Part shown: one piece after another, positions 11,476-25,607 of the stretch
Layout: every line of letters starts with the position of its first letter
Numbering within the stretch: position 1 is the stretch's first letter
Translations under genes and position numbers: made by a program
Source of the DNA: an uncultured Sphingomonadaceae bacterium
GTDB taxonomy: Bacteria; Pseudomonadota; Alphaproteobacteria; Sphingomonadales; Sphingomonadaceae
NCBI GenBank assembly: GCA_964247235.1
Contig: CAXTTJ010000005.1
Span: 9,065-73,064 of the forward strand
Length of the DNA: 64,000 nucleotides
Direction of reading: 5' to 3'
Notes under the pieces: model-generated
Told to the model about the DNA's origin: nothing
Seen by the model: the letters and a program-made list of their open reading frames with translations, nothing else
The model's database searches: none

Positions 11476-12992
11476 TTGTGCGTCTCCGCATCGATGATGA
11501 TCCGTAAGGGCTTGCCGGACGCTGTCTGCGCATCACCACCCGGGTTTGCCCGCGCCATCCGCGCGACCAGCGCGCCGACGTCGCGGCGCATCGGTTTCAG
11601 GAAGCTTTCCGGATAAACTCCCATCCAGAAAACCACCGCGACAATTGGCACGAACATCGCGATTTCGCGTCTGTTAAGGTCGGGCATCGCCAGTGTATCG
11701 GCCCCCGCGGCCTTGCCGTAAATCATCCGCGCATACAGATAAAGCATGTAGGCCGCGCCAAGGATGATGCCCGTGGTGGCAACAAAGGCAACCCAGCTCG
11801 ACGCCTGATAGGCCCCGACCAGACTGAGGAACTCACCGACAAAACCGCTTGTACCAGGCAGGCCCACCGAAGCCATCGTGAATATCATGAAAAACATGGC
11901 ATAACCCGGCATCGTATCTGCAAGGCCGCCATAGCGATTGATCTCACGCGTATGCATGCGGTCGTAAACGACGCCGACGCACAGGAAGAGTGCACCCGAG
12001 ACCAGACCATGGCTAAGCATCACGAGCATCGCGCCCTCAAGCCCCTGCCGGTTGAACGCGAGCAGGCCGATCGTCACGAACGCCATGTGCGCGACACTCG
12101 AATAAGCAATCAGCCTTTTCATGTCAGACTGCACCAGCGCGATCAGCGACGCATAGACGACGGCGATCATCGACAGGCCCATGACGAGCCAGAACCAGTG
12201 CGCTGTCCCTTCTGGAAACATCGGGAGCAGGAAGCGGATGAAGCCATAGCCACCCATTTTGAGCAGCACACCCGCAAGGATCACCGACCCCGCCGTCGGT
12301 GCCTGAACATGCGCATCGGGTAACCAGGTATGCACAGGCCACATCGGCATCTTGACAGCGAATGATGCGAAAAAGGCGATCCACAGCCACGTCTGGGCCT
12401 TGGGCGCGAAGTCGAACTGCATCAGCGTCGGTATGTCGGTCGTCCCCGCCTGCTGCGCCATCCACAGCATCGCAATCAGCATCAGGACCGAGCCGAGCAG
12501 CGTGTACAGAAAAAATTTGTAGCTCGCATAAATCCGGTTCGCGCCGCCCCAGACACCGATGACAAGATACATCGGAATCAACCCCGCTTCGAAGAAAATA
12601 TAGAACAGGAACAGGTCCTGCGCCGCGAACACGCCGATCATCAGCGCTTCCATCAAGAGGAAGGCCGCCATGAATTCAGGAACCCGTCTGGTAATCGATT
12701 CCCACGAGGCTACGATACATATCGGCATCAGGAAAACACTGAGCATGATCAGCATCAGAGCAATGCCGTCAACACCAAGCGCCCAGCTGAACCGATCGAA
12801 CAGGTCGATCCGTTCGACAAACTGCCACTGTGCACCGCCCGGATCGAATTGGGTCCACAGGCTGATCCCGAGAACCAGATCGATTAACGTCGCCCCCAGC
12901 GCAACCCAGCGCGCGGTCGATGCTGACACGTAAAGACACAGCAGCCCCGCCAGCAACGGGATGGCGATCATGGTGGTCAGCACGCCGTTCAT
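11472..12992 (-). CDS. nuoM: NADH-quinone oxidoreductase subunit M
   Basis: [34 protein letters not shown] at 12992 overlaps the nuoL stop. Confidence 0.97.
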
Positions 12993-14959
12993 CGTGCCAT
13001 CACCCATGTCGCTGCCGCACTCAGGCCGACCAGCATGACCAGCGCATAGGTATAAAGATAGCCTGACTGCAATTTTACGGCAAAGCGGCTCCCCTGCGCA
13101 ACGATCGCCGCTGCGCCATTGGGGCCGAACCGGTCGATCACCCCCTCATCGCCGCCTTTCCAGAACAGGCGCCCGAACGCGAACGCCGGTTTGACAAGGA
13201 GCATGTCGTAAAGTTCGTCCCAATACCATTTGTTGCGCAGAAAATCGTAAAGCGGGTGGAATGTCGCGACGAAACGCTTGGAAATGCTCGTGTCACGCAT
13301 ATAGGCCCAATAGGCAATGCCGAGGCCGGTCATCATGACGATGGTCGCCGATAGTTTTACGAGTAACGGCACGCCGTGCATATGATGGGACAGTTCCTCG
13401 TCAAATGCGACGCTTCCCTGCCAGAACTCCGCTTCGAGGAAAGCGTGGTGGAATGCGAAACCTGCAAACACCGCGCCGATCGTGAGGAGTCCGAGCGGGA
13501 CGAGCATCGACATCGGGCTTTCATGCGGATGATATCCCGCTGTGCCGTCGCTACTGGGCGCTGGATGGCCGTGGGTGATATGATCGGACTGATCCCACCG
13601 CGGCTTGCCCCAAAAGGTCAGGAACATCAACCGCCACGAATAGAAACTGGTCAGCAACGCCGCAAACACGGCAACGAAAAATGCGATTCCGCCTTGTTCG
13701 CCGCCGCGCGCATAGGCCGCTTCGATGATGGCATCCTTCGAATAAAAACCGGCGAACCCGAACATTTCGATGATCCCGACGCCGGTAATCGCAAGCGTAC
13801 CTGCCAGCATCGCATAGAAAGTCAGCGGGATATGCGTCCGCAGGCCGCCATAATAGCGCATGTCCTGTTCATGGTGCATCGCATGGATGACGCTGCCCGC
13901 GCCAAGGAACAGCAGCGCCTTGAAAAACGCGTGCGTGAACAGATGGAACATCGCGCCACCAAAGGCGCCCACGCCCGCCGCCATGAACATGTAACCAAGC
14001 TGCGAACAGGTCGAATAGGCGATCACCCGCTTGATGTCAGTCTGCGTCGTACCGACAGTCGCGGCGAAAAACGCGGTCGCGGCACCGACATAGGTGACGA
14101 CATGCATCGCCGTTTCACTCGTCACGAACATCGGTGACAGGCGACAGACCATGAAGACGCCCGCAGTCACCATGGTGGCGGCATGGATCAGCGCAGAGAC
14201 GGGTGTCGGCCCCTCCATCGCGTCAGGAAGCCAGGTGTGCAGCCCGAGCTGCGCCGACTTGCCCATCGCGCCCACAAACAGCAGCAGACAGAGCAAAGTC
14301 ATCACATCGACGCGGTGCCCGAGAAAGCCGATCGTCATCCCTGCCATACCCGGTGCCGCCGCAAGGATCGCGGGGATAGACACAGTGCCGAACACAAGAA
14401 ATGTCCCGAAAATCCCGAGCGAAAAACCGAAATCACCGACACGGTTGACGACAAATGCCTTGATCGCCGCCGCGTTGGCGGAGGGCTTGTGATACCAGAA
14501 ACCGATGAGGAGATAGGACGCAAGCCCGACCCCTTCCCAGCCAAAGAACATCTGGACGAGATTGTCCGCAGTGACGAGCATCAGCATCGCGAAGGTGAAC
14601 AGCGAGAGATACGCAAAGAAGCGCGGCTGGCTCGGGTCTTCGGCCATATAGCCCCAGCTGTAGAGGTGGACGAGCGCCGACACCGACGTCACCACAACCA
14701 GCATGACCGCGGTCAGCGTGTCGACACGCAACGACCAGTCGACATGCATTGTCCCCGAATGAATCCAGTCGAGCACCGGCACGACCTGCGCTACAGAGTG
14801 CCCGCTGAGAAAGCCGATAAAGATTGGCCACGCCAGCGCGCAGCTGCCGAACAGCGCGCCGGTCGTCACGACCTTTGCCGCGGTGTAACCGATAATGCGC
14901 CCGCCAAGGCCAGCAATGATCGCTGCCACCAACGGCAAAAAGACGAGTGCCTGTATCAT
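12989..14959 (-). CDS. nuoL: NADH-quinone oxidoreductase subunit L
   Basis: [42 protein letters not shown]. Confidence 0.97.
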
Positions 14960-14968
14960 GCGCGCACC

Positions 14969-15033
14969 CTTCGCGGCTTCGCGGCTTCGCCTGAACCATT
15001 GCCATCCTCACGCGAAGCCGCGAAGACGCGAAG
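14969..15033. repeat. Palindromic (CGCGAAGC)n element 1, nuoK-nuoL junction
   Basis: 22-bp inverted arms at 14969-14990 and 15012-15033, one mismatch. Confidence 0.9.
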
Positions 15034-15056
15034 AAGAATACTGGCTGCGGCGCGCA

Positions 15057-15362
15057 TCATCCGCGCATCCTGTTCACATCGTCGACCGAAATCGTCGCAC
15101 GACCACGGAAATAAATGACCAATATGGCAAGGCCAATCGCCGCTTCGCCCGCCGCGACAGTCAGCACGAACATGGCAAACACCTGCCCCACCAGATCCCC
15201 CAGAAACGCGCTGAACGCGACGAGATTGATATTCACGCTCAGCAGGATGAGCTCGATCGACATCAGGATGACGATGAGATTCTTGCGGTTTATGAAAATG
15301 CCGAGCACGCCAAGCACGAACAGGATCGCACTGACCGCGATAAAATGGTGAAGGCCGATCAC
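15057..15362 (-). CDS. nuoK: NADH-quinone oxidoreductase subunit K
   Basis: [27 protein letters not shown]. Confidence 0.97.
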
Positions 15363-15973
15363 AATTCCACCCCTGCACCGACCGGCTGGTCCCTGACGAT
15401 CCGCACGGCATCCTGCGGACGGCGGCGGACCTGACGGTCGATATTCTGCGCTTTCAGGCCGCTGCGCTCGCGGTGCGTAAGGACAATCGCGCCGATCATC
15501 GCCACGAGCAGCACAAGCCCCGCCGCCTCAAACGCATAAAGATAGCGTGTATAGAGCAGCAGGCCGATGGCTTCGGTATTGGGCACGCCATTCGCAATGG
15601 GCGATGCCCGCTCCGCCAGCACGACCGGGCCAGCCGTCCATGCGAAAGTCGCAATCAGCGTTTCGGACACCAGAGCCGCCGCGATCACCAGCCCGAACGG
15701 CAGATATTTCGTAAATCCCTGCCGCATCTCCGAAAAATCGATGTCGAGCATCATGACGACGAACAGGAACAGCACCGCCACCGCACCAACATAAACAATG
15801 ACGAGCAGCATCGCGATGAATTCCGCGCCGACCAGCACCATCAGCCCCGCCGCGTTGAAAAAGGCGAGGATGAGCCACAGCACGCTATGCACCGGATTGC
15901 GCGCGGTGATCGTCATCAGCGCGGACATCACGACGATGCCGGCGAACAGATAAAAGGCAAAGACCTGGATCAC
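15359..15973 (-). CDS. nuoJ: NADH-quinone oxidoreductase subunit J
   Basis: [34 protein letters not shown]. Confidence 0.97.
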
Positions 15974-16023
15974 CCGACTACTCCAAATTGGCGCCGCAGG
16001 CCAATAAGCTTTCTTCCCTCTTC

Positions 16024-16086
16024 CTTCGCGGCTTCGCGGCTTTGCGTGAGTCCAGTTGATTCACGCGAAGCCGCGAAGCCGCGAAG
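16024..16086. repeat. Palindromic element 2, nuoI-nuoJ junction
   Basis: 29-bp inverted arms at 16024-16052 and 16058-16086, 5-nt loop, two mismatches. Confidence 0.9.
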
Positions 16087-16153
16087 AAGAAGCGAAAAAT
16101 ATGAAGCCACTGGCGCGGCAATTGTGGTAGACATCCGAATCACGCCCGCGCCC

Positions 16154-16636
16154 CTACCGATACGGCGCATCGGCGGCAAGGTTCGCGGCGATCGCGCGTT
16201 CCCAGCGGTCGCCGTTATCAAGCAGTTTGGACTTGTCGTAGATCAATTCCTCGCGCGTTTCGGTTGCATATTCGAAATTCGGCCCCTCGACGATGGCATC
16301 GACCGGACACGCCTCTGCACACAGCCCGCAGAAGATGCACTTGGTCATGTCGATGTCGTAACGCGTCGTGCGGCGGCTCCCGTCATCGCGCGGCTCGGCC
16401 TCAATCGTGATCGCCTGCGCCGGACACACCGCCTCGCACAGCTTGCACGCAATGCACCGCTCCTCACCATTGGGATAACGGCGCAGCGCATGCTCGCCCC
16501 GAAACCGCGGCGAGAGCGGGTTCTTCTCATACGGATAGTTGATCGTCGCCTTGGGCTTAAAGAAATATTTCAAGGTCAGCCAATGGGCCTTGAGGAATTC
16601 CCATAGGGTAAAGGTTTTGATGAGGTGGGGGATCAT
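16154..16636 (-). CDS. nuoI: NADH-quinone oxidoreductase subunit I
   Basis: Two 4Fe-4S motifs: [12 protein letters not shown] and [12 protein letters not shown]. Confidence 0.98.
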
Positions 16637-17679
16637 GCACTATACCTCGTCAGCATCAGATACCCGCTCACCAGCACCACCCATACCAGCGAAAGCGGCA
16701 GGAAAATCTTCCAGCCCAGCCGCATGAGCTGGTCATAGCGATAGCGCGGGACGGTGGCCTTCACCCAGCTGAACATGAAGAAGAAGATCAAAATCTTCAG
16801 GAACAGCCAGAAAATGCCGGGGATCACATAAAGCGGTGCCCAGTCAACTGGCGGCAGATACCCGCCCCAGAACAGGATCGCGTTCAATGCGCACATCAGG
16901 ATGACGTTGGCGTACTCACCCAGCCAGAACAGCGCGAACGACATAGACGAATATTCGGTCTGATACCCGGCGACGAGCTCGCTTTCGGCCTCGGTCAGGT
17001 CGAACGGCGCGCGCGCGGTTTCGGCGAGGCTCGAAATGAAGAACACCACCGCCATCGGCAGGAACAGCGGATTGAAGCCGAAGCCGTTGGTGATCCACAA
17101 ATGGCTGCGTTGCGCCTCGACAATGGCGGTCATGTTGAACGACCCGACCCACAAAACGACCGAAATCAGCACAAATCCGATGCTGACTTCGTAAGAAACC
17201 ATCTGCGCCGCGGCGCGCAGGGCTGAGTAAAACGGATATTTCGAGTTCGACGACCATCCCGCCATCATCACCCCGTAAACGCCAAGCGACGACGCCGCGA
17301 GAATATAGAGCAGCCCGACATTGATATCTGACAGCACCATCCCCGGCCCGAACGGCACCACCGCCCACACGATCAGCGCGACCGTGAAGGTGATGATCGG
17401 CGCGAGGAGGAACAGGCCCTTGTTCGCACTCGACGGGATGATCGTTTCCTGAAGAAAAACCTTCAGCCCATCGGCGAAGGACTGCAGCAAGCCGAACGGC
17501 CCGACGACATTGGGCCCCTTGCGCAACGCCATCGCCGCCCAGATTTTCCGGTCGGCGTAGATCAGCATCGCGACCGCGAGCATGACCGGCAGCGCGATGA
17601 GGAGAATCATCGCAATGTTCCACGCGAGCCAGCCTGTCGAATACCCCAAATGCAATTGCGCCCATTTCATCCAGGTCAT
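16633..17679 (-). CDS. nuoH: NADH-quinone oxidoreductase subunit H
   Basis: [43 protein letters not shown]. Confidence 0.97.
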
Positions 17680-17715
17680 CGCAGCGTCTCCCGACCGTAG
17701 GCCAGAAAGAGTGTT

Positions 17716-17795
17716 TCACGCGAAGCCGCGAAGCCGCGAAGGCTCTTGCGGGAAGTTTGCGACAGCAACCTTCGCGGCTTTGCGGCTTCGCGTGA
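17716..17795. repeat. Palindromic element 3, nuoG-nuoH junction
   Basis: 27-bp inverted arms at 17716-17742 and 17769-17795; arm order is reversed relative to elements 1 and 2. Confidence 0.9.
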
Positions 17796-17836
17796 GTCAA
17801 ACTTTCCTGCGCGCGAGCGCGCCATTTCCCGTAGCG

Positions 17837-19852
17837 TCATTCCGCTGCCTCCAGCATGTCGCTCCCGTGCAAAATTTCCGCCGAACATAGCTGCATCGTC
17901 GGGCTCGCGCGGCAGATGGCGTTGGTCAGGTAGAAATCCTTGATCGGATAACCCGCCATTTCGGCCCTTGGTGATTTCGGCAGTTTCGGCGGGTTCCAGC
18001 CATAATCGGCCAATCCCTCGACGCCAAGCGCCGGAACCTCGGCAAACATCGCGGCACGCAGGCCATCATAGCTATCGAACGGCAGCGTGTGGCCGAGCAC
18101 CTGCGACAGTGCCCGCAGGATCGTCCAGTCCTCACGCGCGTCTCCCGGCGGGAAGACGGCCCGCTCGCCGCGCTGCACACGCCCTTCAAGGTTCACATAA
18201 GTCCCCGGCTTTTCGGCGTAGCTCGCGCCCGGCAGCACGACATCCGCCGCTGCTGCGCCCCCCCGAACAGACGCGTCGCCATGATGGCCGATATAGACTT
18301 TGAACGAAGACTTGAACGCCGACCAGTCGACTTCGTCAGCGCCAAGTGCGAACACCAATCTGGTTCCCCGAAGCGCCGCGATCCCGCCCGGCTGCGCATA
18401 GCCGAGCATCAGCCCGCCCATCCGCGCGGCTGCCATATGCAGGACGTTGAACCCGTTCCAGCCGTCACGCACCAGCTTGTATTTGTCTGCTATGGCAAGC
18501 GCGGCGCCATGGACACCATCAACCGCCAGAGCACCGCCGCCAACGATGATCGCGGGCCGTTCGGCCACCGCCAAAGCATCCGACAGCACCTTGGGCAAGC
18601 GCGACAAAATGCCCAGCTCGCTTCCAAGCCAATGCGCCTTATAAGTGAGGTCAACCTCCGGCCCGATGGCAAAAACCTTCCCCCCACGCTTGATCGCCTT
18701 GCGCACGCGCGTGTTCACCAGGGGCGCTTCCCAGCGCAAATTCGTGCCGATCAGAAGAACCATATCGGCACGCTCGATGCCCGACATTGTGCTGTTGAAA
18801 TTCACTGCACTCAACGAAGAAACATCGTATTTCAAGCCATTTTGCCGCCCTTCAAACAAATCGCTACCCATCAAACGAACCAGATGCTTTGCCGCATACA
18901 TGGTTTCGCAGTCGACCAGATCGCCCGCAACCGCAGCGACGCTTGACCCTGCATCAACAGCCTGGATCGCCGCGAACGCTTCGTCCCATGTTGCCGCTTC
19001 CAGCTTGCCATTCCGCCGCACATACGGGCGATCGAGACGCTTCCTTACAAGGCCATCGACGGCATGGCGCGTCTTGTCCGACGCCCATTCCTCGTTTACG
19101 TCTTCGTTGATCCGCGGCAGCGCGCGCAGCACCTGCCGTCCGCGTGAATCGAGCCTGATGTTCGTCCCCACCGCGTCCATAACATCAATGGCGGGGGTCT
19201 TTTTCAACTCCCACGGCCGCGCCTCGAACGCATAGGGTTTGGACGTCAACGCACCTACCGGACACAGATCGACGACATTGCCCGACAATTCGGACTGGAT
19301 CGCATGTTCCAGATAGGTGGTGATCTGCATCGATTCACCGCGCCCGATTGCGCCGATATCCTCGACGCCCGCGACTTCCTCCGCAAAGCGGATGCAGCGC
19401 GTGCACTGGATGCACCGCGTCATCACCGTCTTGACGATCGGCCCCATATATTTCTCGGTCACGGCGCGCTTGTTTTCGTCATAGCGGCTGATGCCCTTGC
19501 CATAGGCGACCGACTGGTCCTGCAAATCGCATTCGCCGCCCTGATCGCAAATCGGGCAATCGAGCGGGTGGTTGATGAGCAGAAACTCCATCACCCCCTC
19601 GCGCGCCTTCTTCACCATCGCGCTGTCGGTGCGGATCGCCTGTCCCTCGGCGGCCGGAAGCGCGCACGACGCCTGCGGCTTGGGTGGCCCCGGCGCGACC
19701 TCGACCAGGCACATGCGGCAATTGCCCGCAATACTCAGGCGCTCATGATAGCAGAAACGCGGGATTTCCTTGCCCGCAAGTTCGCAGGCCTGAAGCACAG
19801 TAGCGCCAGCGGGAACTTCGATTTCGACGCCGTCGACAGTGAGTTTAGGCAT
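17837..19852 (-). CDS. nuoG: NADH-quinone oxidoreductase subunit G
   Basis: FCYHERLSIAGNCRMC, HPLDCPICDQGGEC, RCIQCTRC. Confidence 0.98.
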   Translation of the reverse strand: MPKLTVDGVEIEVPAGATVLQACELAGKEIPRFCYHERLSIAGNCRMCLVEVAPGPPKPQASCALPAAEGQAIRTDSAMVKKAREGVMEFLLINHPLDCPICDQGGECDLQDQSVAYGKGISRYDENKRAVTEKYMGPIVKTVMTRCIQCTRCIRFAEEVAGVEDIGAIGRGESMQITTYLEHAIQSELSGNVVDLCPVGALTSKPYAFEARPWELKKTPAIDVMDAVGTNIRLDSRGRQVLRALPRINEDVNEEWASDKTRHAVDGLVRKRLDRPYVRRNGKLEAATWDEAFAAIQAVDAGSSVAAVAGDLVDCETMYAAKHLVRLMGSDLFEGRQNGLKYDVSSLSAVNFNSTMSGIERADMVLLIGTNLRWEAPLVNTRVRKAIKRGGKVFAIGPEVDLTYKAHWLGSELGILSRLPKVLSDALAVAERPAIIVGGGALAVDGVHGAALAIADKYKLVRDGWNGFNVLHMAAARMGGLMLGYAQPGGIAALRGTRLVFALGADEVDWSAFKSSFKVYIGHHGDASVRGGAAAADVVLPGASYAEKPGTYVNLEGRVQRGERAVFPPGDAREDWTILRALSQVLGHTLPFDSYDGLRAAMFAEVPALGVEGLADYGWNPPKLPKSPRAEMAGYPIKDFYLTNAICRASPTMQLCSAEILHGSDMLEAAE

Positions 19853-19992
19853 TATTCCACCGCCTCCAGCAACTCACCACCATCACGCTCGTTGATCCGC
19901 CGCCCGATCTCAGGCCGGAAGTGCTTGATCAGCCCCTGGGTCGGCCACGTCGCGGCGTCGCCCCGCGCACAAATGGCATGACCTTCGGCTTG
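19852..19992 (-). pseudogene. Decayed duplicate of the nuoF 3' end
   Basis: Translates to [46 protein letters not shown], versus Nuo[46 protein letters not shown]. Ends in a TAATG overlap with the nuoG start. Confidence 0.9.
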
Positions 19993-20027
19993 CGGTCTAC
20001 AAATTGTTATATGAAGCATCGGCCCGC

Positions 20028-20255
20028 TCAGTGCGCTGTATCGGCGAGGCCGAGCCGCTTTTCAATTTGGTCAACGCGAACTTTCAAGTCCGAGATGTCA
20101 CTCTGCATCCCATAAACAGAGGTCATCAAGCCGCGCATATGTTCCTCGATCGAAGCCAGTCGGATGCCTTGCGACAATTGCTCGCGTTTGACACCACCCA
20201 AATCACCTTGAATTGATTTCAGTATTTCCAGCATCAAGTCGTCGCGGTCGGTCAT
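20028..20255 (-). CDS. 75-aa coiled-coil hypothetical protein (cargo A)
   Basis: Heptad pattern; similar to the ORF at 22434-22661. Confidence 0.8.
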
Positions 20256-20263
20256 TTTAATTC

Positions 20264-21559
20264 CTATTCAGCGGCTTGTAGCACAGGTTCGGCACGTTCG
20301 TTAATCCGCCGCTCTAATTCGGGCCGAAAATGCCTGATCAGCCCCTGGATCGGCCACGCCGCCGCGTCGCCCAGCGCGCAGATGGTGTGGCCTTCTACCT
20401 GTTTGGTCACTTCCTGCAGCAGGTCGATTTCGCCGATCTCCGCATCGCCGGTGCGCAGGCGTTCCATCATCCGCCACATCCATCCGGTGCCTTCGCGGCA
20501 CGGCGTGCACTGGCCACATGACTCATGCTTGTAGAAATAACTCAACCGCGAAATCGCGCGGACAATATCGGTCGATTTGTCCATTACGATAACCGCTGCG
20601 GTTCCCAGCCCTGATCCGACTGCCTTCAACCCGTCAAAGTCCATCGGGGCGTCCATGATCTGCGCGGCAGGGACGAGCGGCACGGACGATCCGCCGGGAA
20701 TGACCGCGAGCAGATTGTCCCACCCGCCGCGAATGCCGCCGCAATGCGTGTCGATGAGCTCACGAAACGGGATGCCCATCGCGTCCTCGACCACGCAAGG
20801 CTTGTTCACATGGCCGCTGATCTGGAACAGCTTGGTCCCTTCATTCTTCGGATTGCCGATCCCCGCAAACCATGGCGCACCGCGTCGCAGAATCGTCGGG
20901 ACGACGGCAATGCTCTCGACATTGTTGACTGTCGTCGGGCAACCATAAAGCCCCGCGCCCGCCGGGAACGGCGGTTTCAAACGCGGCTGGCCTTTCTTGC
21001 CTTCAAGACTTTCAAGCATCGCGGTTTCTTCGCCGCAGATATACGCGCCCGCGCCCCGGTGGACGAACACATCGAAATCATAGCCCGATTTGCAGGCGTT
21101 CTTGCCGATCAGTCCCTTGGCATAAGCCTCCGCCACGGCCGCGAACAGCACGTCGGTCTCACGGATATATTCGCCGCGGATGTAGATGTACGCGGCGCGC
21201 GCGCGCATGGCGTATCCGGCGATCAGCGCGCCTTCGATCAGCTTGTGCGGATCATGGCGGATGATCTCACGGTCCTTGCAGCTGCCGGGTTCGGATTCAT
21301 CGGCATTGATGACGAGGAAGTTCGGACGCCCCTCGGTCGGCGCCTTGGGCATGAAGCTCCACTTCATCCCCGTCGGGAAGCCAGCCCCGCCACGCCCGCG
21401 CAGGCCGCTCGCCTTGACCACATCGATGATTGCGTCCTGTCCGACAGCCATCAACGCCCTGGTCTTGTCCCAGTCACCGCGCTTCATCGCAGACGCGAGG
21501 TTCCACGGCTGAAAACCATAAAGGTTCGTGAAGATGCGGTCCTTGTCTTGCAAACTCAT
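20264..21559 (-). CDS. nuoF: NADH-quinone oxidoreductase subunit F
   Basis: [45 protein letters not shown]. Confidence 0.98.
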
Positions 21560-21588
21560 GCGCCGCTCCCAGCCCGAAGGGCAAGAAA

Positions 21589-21727
21589 TGACTCACGCGA
21601 AGCCGCGAAGTCGCGAAGAGCAAAGCACTCTCGGCAGCCTCTGCGTGAACCCGAGTCGATTTCATCCAGAGGGCGCAGAGGATGCCGACAAAATAATCTT
21701 CGCGGCTTCGCGCCTTCGCGTGAGTCA
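21589..21727. repeat. Palindromic element 4 with nested second inverted repeat, nuoE-nuoF junction
   Basis: 31-bp outer arms at 21589-21619 and 21697-21727; inner arms TCGGCAGCCTCTGCG / CGCAGAGGATGCCGA. Confidence 0.9.
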
Positions 21728-21761
21728 AATTTACTTGCGCGCACGTGCGCGAGCATTGGCG

Positions 21762-22430
21762 TCATGCCCAGTCCTTCCGGTAGTCATGGTTCTTGCCGAC
21801 CATTGCGATCAACGTCGTCGGCCGCCCTTCGGGGCAGCTGACCTGCCGCGCGATCTGCGAACCCGGCGTCACGGCACGCCCCTCGGCAAGCGCACTCAGG
21901 ATGGCTTCCATGCTGTCATAAGTCAGGTCTTCGAAATTATCGTCGTTGATCTGGACCATCGGCGCGTTCGCGCAGGCACCCAGACATTCGACTTCGGTGA
22001 GGGTGAACAAGCCGTCGGCGGTCGTCCGCCCCTTCGCCATCCCCCGGTTCGCGCAGGCGGCGAGGACATCGTCCGACCCGCGCAACATGCACGGCGTCGT
22101 TCCGCACACCTGCACATGATAGCGCCCGACCGGGGCCATATTGTACATCGTGTAAAAACTGACGACTTCATAGGCACGCATATAGGGCATGCCGAGTTGG
22201 GCCGCGACAAACTCGATGACGGGCACGGGCAGCCACCCTTGCGCGTTCGTTTCCGCCCCCACCTGTCGCTGGGCAAGGTCGAGCAGCGGCATCACCGCCG
22301 ATTGCTGCCGCCCCGCCGGATAGCGCGCGATGATCTCGGCGGCCTTGGTGGCATTCGCCTTGGTCCAGGCGAATTTGCCCCACCGCGCGCGGGTCTCCGC
22401 TTCCTCGGGGATGTGGGTGGTGTCAGCCAC
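21762..22430 (-). CDS. nuoE: NADH-quinone oxidoreductase subunit E
   Basis: [27 protein letters not shown] start. Confidence 0.97.
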
Positions 22431-22433
22431 AGA

Positions 22434-22661
22434 TTATCGCGCCTCCGACAATTCAAGCCGACGCTCGACACGACCGAGGCGTTCGTCGAACTTGTCCATG
22501 CGATTGTTCAAACCGGATAGGCTGATCAACATCCCGCCCATATGCTCGTCAAGTGCGGAAAGCCGTGATTTCACGACCTGCATGTCGTCTTCTATATTGG
22601 TCAACCGGTCATCGATGCGACGTAAGCGTTCGAGGATCAGATTTTCAACATTGTCAGTCAT
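22434..22661 (-). CDS. 75-aa coiled-coil hypothetical protein (cargo B)
   Basis: [13 protein letters not shown]...RLGRVERRLEL; paralogous to cargo A. Confidence 0.8.
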   Translation of the reverse strand: MTDNVENLILERLRRIDDRLTNIEDDMQVVKSRLSALDEHMGGMLISLSGLNNRMDKFDERLGRVERRLELSEAR

Positions 22662-22930
22662 GCCGAAGCTCCTTTCTGAACAGCACTATAGCCAAATTCA
22701 TGGTCACGCGCGCGAGTTTCGGCTTCGTCGGGCATGTGGGGGGTGTCGCCATTTGCGATTTCCCTCGAACGCCTTTCGAGAAACGCCTTCCAAAAGAGGG
22801 CTGCAAACCCGAGAAAATTCGTGAGTAGAATTTCGTCTAACACGTCCAAACCACGCGCAAACTTGAGCACTAGCAAAACTAATGACGCGCCGACGCTCAT
22901 CTTTTGGATGGTATCGAGCACCCCAATCAC
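22658..22930 (-). CDS. Chimeric small ORF: about 60-aa membrane peptide fused to a nuoE 5' relic
   Basis: Two hydrophobic segments followed by [18 protein letters not shown] overlap with the nuoD stop and ATGA overlap with cargo B. Confidence 0.55.
22688..22752 (-). pseudogene. Decayed duplicate of the nuoE 5' end with a 1-nt deletion
   Basis: Restoring one T gives [16 protein letters not shown] versus Nuo[17 protein letters not shown] (13/16 identical). Confidence 0.85.
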
Positions 22931-24177
22931 CGGTCACACTCCCCGAACACGATGTCCATCGCGCCGAGCACGGCGGTCGTGTCCGCGAGCATGTGGCCCT
23001 TCATCATGAAGTCCATCGCCTGCAAATGGCTGAACGCGGTCGGGCGGATTTTGCAGCGATAGGGTTTGTTCGTCCCGTCGCTGACCAGATAGACGCCGAA
23101 TTCGCCCTTGGGGCTTTCGGTCGCGACATAGACTTCGCCGGCGGGGACGTGGAAGCCCTCGGTATAGAGTTTGAAATGGTGGATCAGCGCTTCCATCGAT
23201 CGCTTCATTTCGGCGCGTTTGGGCGGCACCACCTTGCGGTCGTCGCTGGCGATCGGCCCCTCGGGCATTTGCGCCAGGCACTGTTTCATGATGCGCGCCG
23301 ATTGACGCACTTCCTCGACGCGGACCATGAAGCGGTCATAGCAATCGCCGCCACCTCTACCAATAACATTGCCCACCGGCACGTCGAAATCCATCCGGGC
23401 GTACACATCATAAGGCTGCGACTTGCGCAGATCCCACGCGATGCCCGAACCACGGATCATCGGCCCCGAAAAGCCCCAGCGCACCGCATCATCCTTGGTG
23501 ACCACACCGATGTCGACATTGCGCTGCTTGAAAATGCGGTTGTCGGCGACGAGGCTGATCGCATCCTCGAACAGTTGCGGCAGGCGCGTGTCGAGCCAGT
23601 CGGCAATGTCGGTGAGCAGCTTCAGCGGCACATCCTGATGCACGCCGCCGGGCCGGAAATAGGCGCAATGCATTCGCGCACCCGATGCGCGCTCGAAAAA
23701 GTTCATGCAGTCTTCGCGGATTTCGAACATCCACAAATTCGGCGTCATCGCACCGACGTCCATCACATGCGACCCGAGGTTGAGCATGTGATTGGAAATG
23801 CGCGTCAATTCGGCGAAAAACACTCGCAGATATTGCGCGCGCAACGGGACGTCGAGATCAAGCAGCTTCTCGATCGCGAGCACATATGAGTGCTCCATGC
23901 ACAGCGGCGAACAATAATCGAGGCGGTCGAAATAAGGCAGCGCCTGAAGATAGGTCTTATGCTCGATCAGCTTTTCGGTGCCGCGGTGGAGCAGCCCGAC
24001 ATGCGGGTCGCAGCGCTCGACGATTTCGCCGTCGAGTTCCATGACAAGCCGGAGAACGCCATGCGCGGCCGGGTGCTGCGGCCCGAAATTGATCGTGTAA
24101 TTCTGAATTTCGACATCGCCGGGGGTGGGCTTTTCGCCGTCGGTCTCCGTGCGAAATTGTTCGAGCGTTTCAGCCAC
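22927..24177 (-). CDS. nuoD: NADH-quinone oxidoreductase subunit D
   Basis: [47 protein letters not shown] at 24177. Confidence 0.97.
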
Positions 24178-24217
24178 AATAAATCTCCGCCGCGCTTGCG
24201 GCATTCAAAACCTTCAT

Positions 24218-24316
24218 CTTCGCGCCTTCGTGCCGTCGTGTGAAATCACGTCCTGTCTTCTCAACCTTGGCGAAGAAGGAGAAAAATGCCTCACACGAAA
24301 GCACGAAGGCACGAAG
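24218..24316. repeat. Palindromic element 5 (CACGAAGG variant), nuoC-nuoD junction
   Basis: 26-bp inverted arms at 24218-24243 and 24291-24316, three mismatches. Confidence 0.85.
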
Positions 24317-24333
24317 GTGGGAAGAAATGGCAG

Positions 24334-25071
24334 TCATGCACCTTCCTTCGTCTTGCGCACACGCTTCGGTTTGGCGGCTTCGTTCGCGGCAGGCCCTGCG
24401 CCGGTGTCCGACGGTTTTTCGGTCACTTTTGGCGTCGCTGGCGGAGCAACCGGCGGAGCGGGCGCCACATATTTCTCGTCACCGGGAAGGATGTAGTCCG
24501 CACCTTCCCAAGGGCTCATGAAATCGAATGTGCGGAAATCCTGTGCCAACCGCACCGGTTCGTAGACGACACGCTTGGCGTCTTCGGAATAGCGCAGTTC
24601 GACATAGCCGGTCAGCGGGAAATCCTTGCGCTGAGGGTGCCCGCGAAAACCGTAATCAGTAAGGATACGGCGCAAATCGGGGTTACCGCTAAACAGCACG
24701 CCATACATGTCGAACACTTCGCGTTCGAGCCACCCCGCGACCGGCCACAGCCCCGTGACCGACGGCACGGCCTGAACCTCATCGGTTATTAGCTTTACGC
24801 GGATACGATGGTTTCTTGTCAGCGACAGCAGATGATAAACCACCTCGAACCGTTCAGGCCGGTCGGGATAATCGACGCCGGCAATTTCCATGAGCTGCTG
24901 ATAGCCGCAGTCATCGCGCAGCGCGGTCATCACCGCGACGATGGCCTCGCGTTTCACTGTCAGCGTCACTTCACCGACCAGATCGACCGCGTCGAGCACA
25001 GCCTTGCCACAGGCCTTCTTCGCAGCGGCAATCACACCCTTGTTCGGTGCATAGGCGGGCGCACAATGCAT
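24334..25071 (-). CDS. nuoC: NADH-quinone oxidoreductase subunit C
   Basis: [28 protein letters not shown]; Pro/Ala/Lys-rich tail. TGATG overlap with nuoB. Confidence 0.96.
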
Positions 25072-25607
25072 CAGCGTTCGATGGTTCCGCTGCGACGGAT
25101 TTTCCGCTGCAGCTGCATGATGCCGTACAACAACGCCTCTGCCGTCGGCGGACAGCCCGGCACGTAAATATCGACGGGCACGATGCGATCGCATCCGCGC
25201 ACCACCGAATAGCTGTAATGATAATAGCCGCCGCCGTTCGCGCAGCTGCCCATCGATATCACATATTTCGGGTCCGACATCTGGTCGTACACCTTGCGCA
25301 GCGCGGGCGCCATCTTGTTGCACAGCGTCCCCGCCACGATCATCACGTCTGACTGGCGCGGAGACGCACGTGGTGCGACACCGAAGCGTTCGAGATCGTA
25401 GCGCGGCATGTTGACATGGATCATCTCGACCGCACAGCAGGCGAGGCCAAAGGTCATCCACCACAGCGATCCGGTGCGCGCCCAGTGAAACAGGTCCTCG
25501 GTCGACGCCACAAGAAACCCCTTGTCGGTCAGCTCGCCGTTGAGATCGTTGAAAAACCCGTCATTTTGCACCGACGTGCCGGGGGCGCGGGCAAGTTCTA
25601 CTCCCAT
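25071..25607 (-). CDS. nuoB: NADH-quinone oxidoreductase subunit B
   Basis: [37 protein letters not shown]. Confidence 0.97.

Follow-up and report, generated by a model that had tools for sequence, protein, structure and literature searches.

Palindromic repeat elements at five nuo operon junctions of a Sphingomonadaceae bacterium as probable gene-less arms of GxxExxY nuclease cassettes

The window analyzed here is a 64-kb stretch of DNA from an uncultured Sphingomonadaceae bacterium. It contains a nuo (complex I) operon in which nuoL, K, J, I, H, G, F, E, D and C are neighbours, all on the minus strand and all assigned by Pfam matches. Five inverted-repeat elements had been placed in this operon by an earlier note on the DNA, and they are present at those positions, exactly at nuoC/D, nuoE/F, nuoG/H, nuoI/J and nuoK/L. 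The features are as follows, with L and R denoting the two arms of an element.

12989..25464, minus strand: host operon context (Pfam)
12989-14959, minus strand: nuoL
14956..15060, minus strand: element 1 (nuoK/nuoL), R-L, arms 14969-14994 and 15008-15033; the 34-aa bridge ORF runs between two ATGA overlaps, one with the nuoK stop and one with the nuoL start
15057-15362, minus strand: nuoK
15359-15973, minus strand: nuoJ
15970..16143, minus strand: element 2 (nuoI/nuoJ), R-L, arms 16024-16049 and 16061-16086; bridge ORF of 57 aa, GTGA to GTGA
16154-16636, minus strand: nuoI
16633-17679, minus strand: nuoH
17676..17840, minus strand: element 3 (nuoG/nuoH), L-R, arms 17716-17741 and 17770-17795 separated by 28 nt; 54-aa bridge ORF, ATGA to ATGA
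17837-19852, minus strand: nuoG
20264-21559, minus strand: nuoF
21556..21765, minus strand: element 4 (nuoE/nuoF), L-R, arms 21593-21618 and 21698-21723; bridge ORF of 69 aa, ATGA to ATGA
21762-22430, minus strand: nuoE
22927-24177 or 24204, minus strand: nuoD
24170..24337, minus strand: element 5 (nuoC/nuoD), R-L, arms 24218-24243 and 24291-24316, built of CACGAAGG-type units; the 55-aa bridge ORF opens at the ATGA of the nuoC stop and closes at the TGA within GTGGCTGA, likely the true nuoD start
24334-25464, minus strand: nuoC

The earlier description of the elements holds up well. Each arm consists of three 8-nt units and is capped by TCAC or GTGA; elements 1, 2 and 5 have the order R-L, with GTGA...TCAC inside, and elements 3 and 4 have the opposite order, L-R, with TCAC...GTGA outside. 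The flanks common to elements 3 and 4 are also as described, and read ...RAGKFDSRE... and ...RASKFDSRE... in translation. In element 2 the entire 174-nt insert is one long palindrome, with the tail GGCCTGCGGCGC, and the 79-nt interior of element 4 holds a nested pair of CGCAGAG-type units (about 21636-21690). The window contains 21 matches to CGCGAAGNCGCGAAG with up to two mismatches, versus 2.6 expected, a number reached by none of 100 shuffles. The five inserts are predicted to fold very stably as RNA (-58 to -110 kcal/mol; z -5.4 to -8.3). On its own an arm (TCAC + 3 x CGCGAAGC) has no self-complementarity, and folding needs the arm pair.

On either side of the inserts stands a copy of a stop/start overlap, ATGA or GTGA (RTGA), and comparison with empty sites shows the RTGA to be duplicated at KL, IJ, GH, EF and at a further junction, murB/ddl. 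Of 28 inserts placed after an RTGA stop, 25 have no stop codon in the coupling frame, versus 19 of 56 for the other two sense frames, and all five window elements are stop-free bridge ORFs (34-69 aa). Unrelated palindromes at these nuo junctions have RTGA brackets and bridge frames too, so that these features inform on the tolerance of nuo more than on the insertion chemistry of the element.

Beyond the nuo junctions the window contains no further copy, and it contains no GxxExxY gene, both as claimed earlier. Confinement to nuo junctions, also proposed, holds within the window but fails genome-wide, where copies also occur outside nuo. Three further gene-less doublets were found in the genome (contig C3, between pntA and pntB; contig C13, inside truB; contig C65), as were about seven solo two-unit arms, of which the three examined (C2, C31, C8) lie at co-directional gene junctions, and two gene-carrying copies, on contigs other than that of the window (C22 and C45). 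Nuo nevertheless accounts for 5/8 of the gene-less doublets, a strong enrichment (binomial p = 7e-10). The truB copy is in frame and 63 nt long, adding 21 codons to a surface loop of TruB, and the pntA/pntB copy is flanked by a duplication of ~15 nt, not 4 nt. The idea that orphans always occupy co-directional junctions was ruled out with a sample of 20 doublets from the congener G020, of which 11 are co-directional, 6 convergent and 3 divergent (orientation judged with a GC3-based ORF classifier). The repeat family extends beyond nuo and beyond operon junctions. On the question of whether the elements belong to a described family dispersed at random, the first part finds no support: searches of Rfam 15 by E-value and gathering thresholds gave only sub-threshold generic hairpin matches to miRNA precursor models, a described RNA family was dropped as a candidate for want of any match at gathering score, and L001 and L002 gave nothing in Rfam. 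Genome-wide, the elements do behave like dispersed intergenic repeats.

The suggestion in the earlier note that such repeats flank GxxExxY genes, of the PD-(D/E)xK nuclease type, proves right for C22 and C45 and also generally. These two contigs carry the genome's only GxxExxY (PF13366/TIGR04256) genes, and each gene lies between these arms. They match TIGR04256 with E values of 1e-35 to 1e-38 and 121-131 bits (cut-off 35), and the PF13366 profile match of the partner gene scores 130 bits. The full unit is built as TCAC, three 8-nt units, a gene of ~125 aa, three units in reverse complement and GTGA. In the congeners all 25 GxxExxY genes lie between such arms (the genes occur in 15 of 24 congeners). 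Inverted repeats of the TCAC + CRCRRAGN x 3 kind also flank 56 of 77 cross-phylum relatives, from Chloroflexota, Verrucomicrobiota, Planctomycetota, Desulfobacterota, Bacteroidota, Acidobacteriota and others, versus 1 of 77 in the control. The impression that the elements were cut from a longer alternating array likewise has a counterpart, since L-R-L-R arrays flank a GxxExxY relative in a Roseiflexus genome (L109). A cassette ORF that ends in a stop/start overlap is not universal, being found at 13 of the 76 cross-phylum loci. Within the genus, the gene-carrying cassettes occupy murB/ddl, fabD/fabG and a site upstream of ilvA. The catalytic residues E21, D61, E71 and K73 (an E...D...ExK core) are invariant in 25/25 genus proteins, and the predicted structure (pLDDT 95) has Cas4 SSO0001 (4ic1) as its best PDB match; no solved structure was detectable by sequence. 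PF13366/GxxExxY is a very widespread prokaryotic family that is listed as ‘function unknown’ in a superfamily survey (PMC3424549), and a literature search on the GxxExxY name found nothing on the biology of the family.

Arms and gene go together across genomes. There are 6-66 pattern matches per genome with the gene (n=15) and 0-8 without it (n=10), and over the 25 genomes arm count follows gene presence with a Spearman rho of 0.89 (Mann-Whitney p = 2.5e-5); the co-occurrence could reflect only joint inheritance and loss. The sequences of arms and cassettes also correspond. The CGCGAAGC units of the C22 cassette are present in elements 1-4 and in the C3 and C13 copies, with 0-1 mismatches per arm in elements 1-4 and C3, and 3 in the L arm of C13. 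The CACGAAGG units of the C45 cassette are present in element 5 and C65, including the odd CACGACGG unit, which is the first L unit of element 5 and is common to the L arm of the C45 cassette. Orphan arms at nuo in G022, G020 and G010 match their own resident cassettes as well. The cognate match is incomplete, in that G017 and G013 have CGCGGAG-type orphans without a matching cassette and G020 has four unit types but only two cassettes. We also considered the loop of element 2, which resembles the outer flanks of the C22 cassette as a circle junction might, and the resemblance is too short to serve as evidence.

The earlier note had suggested a comparison of orthologous nuo junctions, looking for empty sites or for versions with a nuclease gene between the arms. 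Both exist, the latter at other operon junctions. Each nuo junction is filled in some congeners and empty in others. At KL, an empty ATGA overlap is found in G011, G001, G023, G013 and G021, and the site is filled in G000, G010 and G022, G013 being the sister of G010. Empty sites of 15-19 nt occur at IJ in nine congeners, and GH is an empty ATGA overlap in G023. The murB/ddl cassette similarly lies between ATGA...ATGA, with a single ATGA in G007, G014, G004, G015 and G009. Among close relatives, the same nuo junction may be empty or hold an 8-mer element of another unit type, an unrelated palindrome or a small ORF, and the nuo junctions of three outgroup genera have no elements. At fabD/fabG of G000 an L arm is followed by the opening ~10 codons of the gene, a deletion of ~370 nt and an R arm, and this relic can be aligned with the intact cassette that G022 has at that site. 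The decayed cassette shows the way in which gene-less L-R copies originate.

We consider it probable (about 0.6) that the five nuo elements are orphan doublets of the arms found on either side of GxxExxY nuclease genes, without the gene and propagated in a repeat-nuclease partnership. The earlier label of non-autonomous REP-like relics agrees with the evidence. The best reading is a REPIN/RAYT-like or NTS/Ssn-like partnership, here built on a Cas4-like nuclease. The gene-carrying units would be low-copy, long-term residents of a few fixed sites; the arms would multiply as gene-less doublets whose sequence follows that of the resident cassette, and would vanish from genomes after gene loss. Copies would last only at places that tolerate a stop-free palindrome of 60-200 nt, and in this small genome these would be operon stop/start overlaps and the TruB surface loop. 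At nuo, each insert retains the old start codon (RTGA), stays open through both arms and closes with a TGA overlapping the next start, so that translational coupling would be preserved; the elements would owe their survival in nuo to read-through of each insert as a tiny bridge in frame. The association of arms with the gene, the cognate match, the presence or absence at orthologous sites, the one deletion derivative and the bridge frames are shown by the data. We infer both that the nuclease acts on the arms, by binding or cutting, and so propagates or homogenizes them, and the way in which R-L doublets form.

Other explanations account for parts of these data. If arms and gene made up an active, autonomous transposon or homing element, whose nuclease cut RTGA-like targets with a 4-nt duplication, the nuo copies would be MITEs mobilized in trans. 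The ATGA or GTGA around the murB/ddl cassette (versus empty sites) and around the gene-less KL, IJ, GH and EF copies agrees with this idea, as does the resemblance of the GTGA arm cap to the target; the genes at IJ do not overlap, which leaves the left RTGA copy with no obvious selective role, and the association of one arm type with a protein subfamily across phyla implies whole-unit transfer. However, the same brackets surround unrelated palindromes, the pntA/pntB duplication is ~15 nt instead of 4 nt, and just 13/76 cross-phylum cassettes end in a stop/start overlap. The GxxExxY protein tree, moreover, clusters by insertion site, so that the cassettes appear to be passed on vertically at a few sites and not to hop. 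Finally, homology between copies is limited to the ~30-nt arms (blastn among elements), so there is no conserved MITE body, and we dropped a classical MITE consensus for this reason. We regard active transposition as unlikely. Pure decay is another idea, in which a full cassette once stood at each nuo junction and separate deletions left the five elements behind, without any gene-less propagation. The fabD/fabG relic shows that internal deletion happens, and elements 3 and 4 show the expected L-R topology, but R-L doublets, the commoner form at nuo (3/5 elements and most congener nuo copies), cannot be produced by internal deletion. No full cassette was found at nuo junctions among 17 congeners, and an HMM of the GxxExxY proteins of the genus found no gene remnants in the gene-less elements, so that decay from local full cassettes is unsupported for nuo. 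Further, the arms are near-identical to those of the C22 cassette even though the C22 protein is only 68% identical to its G022 ortholog, which points to recent copying or conversion. We therefore find decay as the sole source quite improbable.

A host function would make the hairpins selected parts of the nuo transcript, such as RNase III sites, or stability or translation-coupling devices that set subunit ratios. The stems are indeed very stable, the enrichment in nuo is strong, the frame is preserved and every second junction is occupied with regularity (CD, EF, GH, IJ, KL); RNase III is known to act on Correia elements in operon transcripts (PMC10969869). Even so, such a role is very improbable, given that close relatives do not conserve the sites, that the outgroup genera lack the elements, and that the same repeats occur in unrelated contexts, including the inside of truB.

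Returning to the repeat-nuclease partnership, a broader form of it is possible, though hardly to be expected. GxxExxY genes and arms may constitute a so far undescribed cross-phylum repeat-propagation system, in which a minimal Cas4-like nuclease would recognize three-unit TCAC/GTGA-capped arrays (as hairpin or cruciform) and would copy or insert them at RTGA overlaps with a 4-nt duplication, the repeats being built for read-through translation. Three 8-nt units are always a multiple of three nt, and the arms have no stop codon in any frame; these properties would permit life in operon junctions, and even in essential ORFs, as coupled mini-cistrons. We found no published description of this repeat-nuclease partnership.

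Of known systems, REP/REPIN-RAYT is similar in several respects: short units form inverted doublets, repeats stand on both sides of the enzyme gene as well, that gene is present in few copies and stays at its sites whereas gene-less doublets are numerous, and repeats vanish where the gene is absent. It differs in that the RAYT is a Y1/HUH transposase, whereas the enzyme here is a ~125-aa PD-(D/E)xK (Cas4-like) nuclease, and in that the arm here is a tandem array of three 8-nt units with no self-folding, whereas a REP unit is an imperfect palindrome in its own right. An association with RAYTs in this genome was rejected, because its two PF01797 Y1-transposase genes (C12:27247, C2:127685) have AAAAGTGTCAGACACTTTT-type and other repeats at their flanks instead of the 8-mer arms. 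The Ssn/NTS-SRM system also combines a small nuclease gene with hairpin-forming repeats on both sides and many orphan copies (PMC11893778), and its repeat sequence diverges along with the protein; the fold there is GIY-YIG (cd10448) rather than PF13366 PD-(D/E)xK, and the repeats are built differently. Cleavage by Ssn of its own repeat has been shown in vitro (PMC11893778), whereas the action of GxxExxY on the arms is something we only infer. In E. coli, BIME clusters contain REPs in alternating orientations. The present elements share with them head-to-head and tail-to-tail pairs and, in some genomes (L109), long alternating arrays, but differ in unit sequence and associated enzyme, and arrays are rare in this genus.

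Bacterial MITEs such as Chunjie and Correia (PMC10969869) likewise end in inverted repeats, have short direct repeats at their flanks, are present or absent at orthologous sites and can lie inside operons, in the case of Chunjie without disruption of the operon. Here, in contrast, the arms are found in either order relative to each other and enclose no conserved body, and the gene-carrying parent encodes only a PD-(D/E)xK nuclease and no known transposase. Rickettsia palindromic elements are alphaproteobacterial palindromic repeats found in frame in protein-coding genes (PMC10969869), as is the truB copy, but they have no associated enzyme gene and are not made of tandem short units. Integron attC cassettes resemble the present ones as small, promoterless cassettes with a hairpin-forming imperfect inverted repeat and expression from host transcription; here there is no integrase and no attI array, arms stand at both ends, and insertion is at operon stop/start overlaps.

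These observations provide the GxxExxY family with a concrete candidate partner, the ~26-nt arm of three 8-nt units. The genus offers a natural experiment, in which congeners with and without the gene, empty and filled sites and a deletion intermediate can be compared, and one 2.5-Mb genome holds two cognate arm/gene sets. For gene calling, the 34-69-aa bridge ‘ORFs’ are not genes in the usual sense. More generally, a long stoichiometric operon can absorb many very stable hairpins if each insert is a translationally coupled open frame, which bears on the colonization of compact genomes by selfish repeats.

The nuo (complex I) operon lies on the minus strand of the window, where nuoL, K, J, I, H, G, F, E, D and C were identified with Pfam, and five inverted repeats sit at exactly the K|L, I|J, G|H, E|F and C|D gaps (elements 1 to 5). 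Each arm consists of TCAC followed by three 8-nt units; we use L for the TCAC...AAG arm and R for its complement. Elements 3 and 4 have the order L-spacer-R, with the caps outermost, and elements 1, 2 and 5 the order R-loop-L, with the caps next to the loop. The pattern CGCGAAGNCGCGAAG, with at most two mismatches, matches 21 times in the window versus 2.6 expected, a number that no shuffle reaches. Folding of the inserts as RNA gives -58 to -110 kcal/mol (z from -5.4 to -8.3), and no Rfam family matches them. We consider these elements to be orphan arm doublets (arm pairs without a gene) of GxxExxY nuclease cassettes (arm, gene, arm), which persist at the junctions because they are still coupled open frames.

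Arm-bearing features (C-numbers are contigs of G000, the genome holding the window, which is C5:9065-73064; frame lengths are those of the open frames)
Element 1, nuoK|L: CGCGAAGN units, 34 aa
Element 2, nuoI|J: CGCGAAGN units, 57 aa
Element 3, nuoG|H: CGCGAAGN units, 54 aa
Element 4, nuoE|F: CGCGAAGN units, 69 aa
Element 5, nuoC|D: CACGAAGG-like units, 55 aa
C22 and C45: arms ~400 nt apart, with a gene in between
C3 (pntA|pntB), C13 and C65: further arm copies from the genome-wide search
Solo two-unit arms, ~7 in the genome: three examined, on C2, C31 (sufC|sufD) and C8 (glyQ|glyS)

The spacer of element 4 (window ~21636-21690) holds a nested R'-L' pair, CCTCTGCGTGAAC ... GGGCGCAGAGG, of a different unit type (CGCAGAG). 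The five elements occupy alternate junctions (window 14956-24337), a pattern spotted post hoc; in G000, H|I, J|K and L|M are simple overlaps, and they are filled in other species. Other insertions are visible in the same operon. Two features lie in the nuoG-nuoF gap (window 19853-20263): on the minus strand at 20028-20255 an ORF for a 75-aa coiled coil, and at ~19853-20020 a second, diverged copy of the 3' end of nuoF, whose overlap with the nuoG start persists. The gap has the look of an insertion through which a nuoF end was brought in or duplicated. The 499-nt nuoD|nuoE gap (22434-22930) contains two small ORFs, one of 90 aa (22658-22930) and the other, of 75 aa (22434-22661), again a coiled coil, with weak sub-threshold Pfam matches such as XhlA; similar 75-aa ORFs occur at E|F and F|G of two congeners (G004 and G017, respectively). 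The nuoC frame (24334-25464) encodes 376 aa with the Complex1_30kDa domain at residues 168-287 only, and has a long N-terminal extension and a basic C-terminal tail; its length differs among congeners.

The genes enclosed at C22 and C45 match TIGR04256 ‘GxxExxY’ at 121-131 bits (cut-off 35) as well as PF13366 (PDDEXK_3), and are the only GxxExxY genes in the 2.46-Mb genome (79 contigs, 61% G+C). The suggestion in the earlier note that similar repeats flank such genes was thus right for both. GxxExxY genes occur at 1-3 per genome in 15 of 24 congeners and are absent from all 16 other genera of the order searched. Within the genus, L...R arms of the same build flank 25 of 25 genes, and the unit varies among cassettes (CGCGAAGN, CACGAAGG, CGCGGAGN, CGCAAAGG, CGCAGAGNN, CACAAAGN and CACCTAAG). 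The design was also looked for in 77 relatives with 50-63% identity from Chloroflexota, Verrucomicrobiota, Planctomycetota, Desulfobacterota, Bacteroidota, Acidobacteriota and other phyla: 56 of these have an inverted repeat on their flanks with a score of 16 or more, versus 1 of 77 in the reversed-sequence control, and the arms are likewise TCAC plus three CRCRRAGN units (period 8 in 33, period 9 in 3). Some depart from the L-gene-R arrangement, as in LR-gene-LR, the nested LLL-gene-RRRR of a Chloroflexota MAG (locus L049), and a Roseiflexus MAG (L109) whose gene lies within a long alternating array, LRLR-gene-LRLRLRLR, with ~40-nt spacing; these echo the earlier remark that the nuo elements look cut from a longer alternating array. 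A literature search turned up no earlier account of a gene combined with arms in this way and no paper with ‘GxxExxY’ as its subject, the name being mentioned only in passing; PF13366 is classed as function unknown (PMC3424549).

The 25 proteins share invariant H, GPG, E..YE, D, ExK, QxLTYL and GLxxNF motifs. A sequence search of the PDB detected no relative, but the AlphaFold model (mean pLDDT 95) has as its top structural match the Cas4 protein SSO0001 (4ic1; probability 0.99-1.0), followed by far weaker matches to an archaeal Holliday-junction resolvase, splicing endonucleases and a homing endonuclease domain.

Arm number follows the gene. The two-unit degenerate pattern CRCRRAGNCRCRRAG has 6-66 matches in 15 gene-bearing congeners and 0-8, the level of the reversed-pattern control, in 10 gene-less ones (Mann-Whitney p = 2.5e-5; Spearman rho against gene number 0.89). 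The orphans of G000 form two sets, each matching one resident cassette: CGCGAAGC units of the C22 type are in elements 1-4, C3 and C13 (0-1 mismatches per arm against the C22 arms for elements 1-4 and C3, and 3 for the C13 L arm), and C45-type units are in element 5 and C65, including the aberrant first unit of C45, CACGACGG. The nuo copies of G022, G020 and G010 also agree with a cassette resident in the same genome; no such match exists for those of G013 or for several of those in G017 and G020. In the protein tree, cassettes cluster by insertion site (upstream of ilvA, fabD|fabG and murB|ddl), and arm type agrees with protein clade. Units with a gene thus have the appearance of long-standing residents that pass down at fixed sites, are sometimes swapped between species and are often lost, and the multiplying part is the gene-less arms. 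The ilvA-upstream cassette has near-identical proteins in G013, G010 and G001 (L021, L022 and L025), and the nuo tree places G001 with G023, yet the G023 cassette is of a different lineage; these sequences suggest exchange between species.

Comparison of the nuo operons of 17 congeners and three outgroup genera, which have short gaps only, shows every junction to be polymorphic in the genus, ranging by species from an overlap or a few nt to 100-2000 nt. The empty sites that the earlier note proposed to look for thus exist at all junctions. Elements of the 8-mer type, nearly all in R-L order, are also present in G022 (E|F, I|J and K|L), G010 (I|J and K|L), G013 (I|J) and G020 (E|F), and the unit type at a given junction differs among species. 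On the nuoI-L tree, G000, G010 and G022 have an insert at K|L, and G013, which is the sister of G010, has the ATGA overlap intact, as do four other clade members; this requires several gains or several precise losses. A version holding the nuclease gene between the arms, which the earlier note proposed to look for at nuo junctions, is found at another operon junction, murB|ddl, where five congeners (G007, G014, G004, G015 and G009) have the empty form ...ATGA AAGTC and G000 has ...ATGA (arm-gene-arm ... ATGA) AAGTC.

The arm order of the gene-less doublets bears on their origin. A relic at fabD|fabG in G000 (C47:1735-1852) aligns to the full G022 cassette at the same site as L arm, first ~10 codons, a ~370-nt gap, R arm and right flank; its arms are degenerate and of the CGCGGAG type, and full cassettes stand there in G019, G008 and G022. 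This deletion intermediate means that internal deletion accounts for L-R orphans. Internal deletion cannot explain the R-L orphans, whose order would result from joining the two ends of a circle or from a tandem pair; an HMM search found no gene remnant in any nuo element. In R-L copies of differing unit type the L arm is followed by a common tail, a purine tract and then (T)TGGSCTGCGGCGC; apart from this, homology between copies ends at the ~30-nt arms.

All five inserts are open frames in which both arms are read through, ending in a TGA that overlaps the downstream start. Elements 1, 3, 4 and 5 start with an ATGA overlapping the upstream stop, and element 2 with a GTGA 10 nt past the nuoI stop, approximately the old nuoJ start position, which is retained even though the I|J genes do not overlap. 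The C22 cassette is built in the same way, its frame running from the ATGA at the murB stop through L arm, gene and R arm (...FAASRLRVN...) to the ATGA of ddl. Among 28 inserts of 45-330 nt after an RTGA stop in 17 congeners, the coupling frame is stop-free in 25, and the two other sense frames in 19 of 56. Unrelated palindromes at the same junctions (GTCACCCCGG..., GTCATCCCAGC... and AATTGGGGAC... types) obey the same rule equally; the RTGA...RTGA bracket and the bridge frame thus reflect, in part at least, a filter set by the operon, which only inserts keeping translational coupling pass. The 4-nt RTGA duplication may also be a true target-site duplication; the pntA|pntB copy has a ~15-nt duplicated stretch instead.

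The elements had been described as confined to nuo junctions. Enrichment there is indeed strong in G000 (5 of 8 gene-less doublets, p = 7e-10, with ~8 of ~754 RTGA overlaps belonging to nuo), but confinement to junctions is a trait of this small genome and not of the family: in G020, nuo holds 1-2 of ~33 doublets, a much weaker enrichment, and 20 sampled doublets lie between genes that are co-directional (11), convergent (6) or divergent (3). Inserts are tolerated by a similar logic within a gene: the C13 copy (C13:1213-1275, L129) is an R-L, 63-nt in-frame insert of 21 codons in a TruB loop, directly preceding VSKGTYIR. In G001 and G013 this loop carries R-L elements of the CGCAGAG type, in G004, G011, G007, G003, G008 and G015 other palindrome families, and in G002, G009, G006 and G012 nothing, making it the genus's second hot spot for palindromic repeats of all kinds.

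An origin as RAYT repeats was ruled out, since the two Y1-transposase (RAYT-like) genes of G000 (C12:27247-27573, L175; C2:127685-128011, L176) carry other repeats, of the AAAAGTGTCAGACACTTTT type and of the form TTTCGGGGACA...TAATTA. A AAAAGTGTCAGACACTTTT-type repeat also fills nuoI|J in G023.

From the association, the match of orphans to cognate cassettes and the parallels with RAYT and Ssn, we infer that the Cas4-like nuclease would bind or cut the arms, thereby copying or homogenising them. The 8-nt period is unlike the DNA helical repeat, and recognition of a single strand or hairpin seems at least as plausible as duplex binding; three units of any length total a multiple of three nt, and the units here are stop-free in all frames, which would suit read-through. 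REPIN/RAYT shows the same pattern of a site-faithful gene and multiplying gene-less repeats, and the NTS/Ssn pairing described in 2025 (PMC11893778) a similar one. For the GxxExxY family, the comparisons supply orthologous sites both with and without an insert, duplication of a landing site, a deletion intermediate, arm counts that depend on the gene inside a single genus, and the bridge-frame rule.
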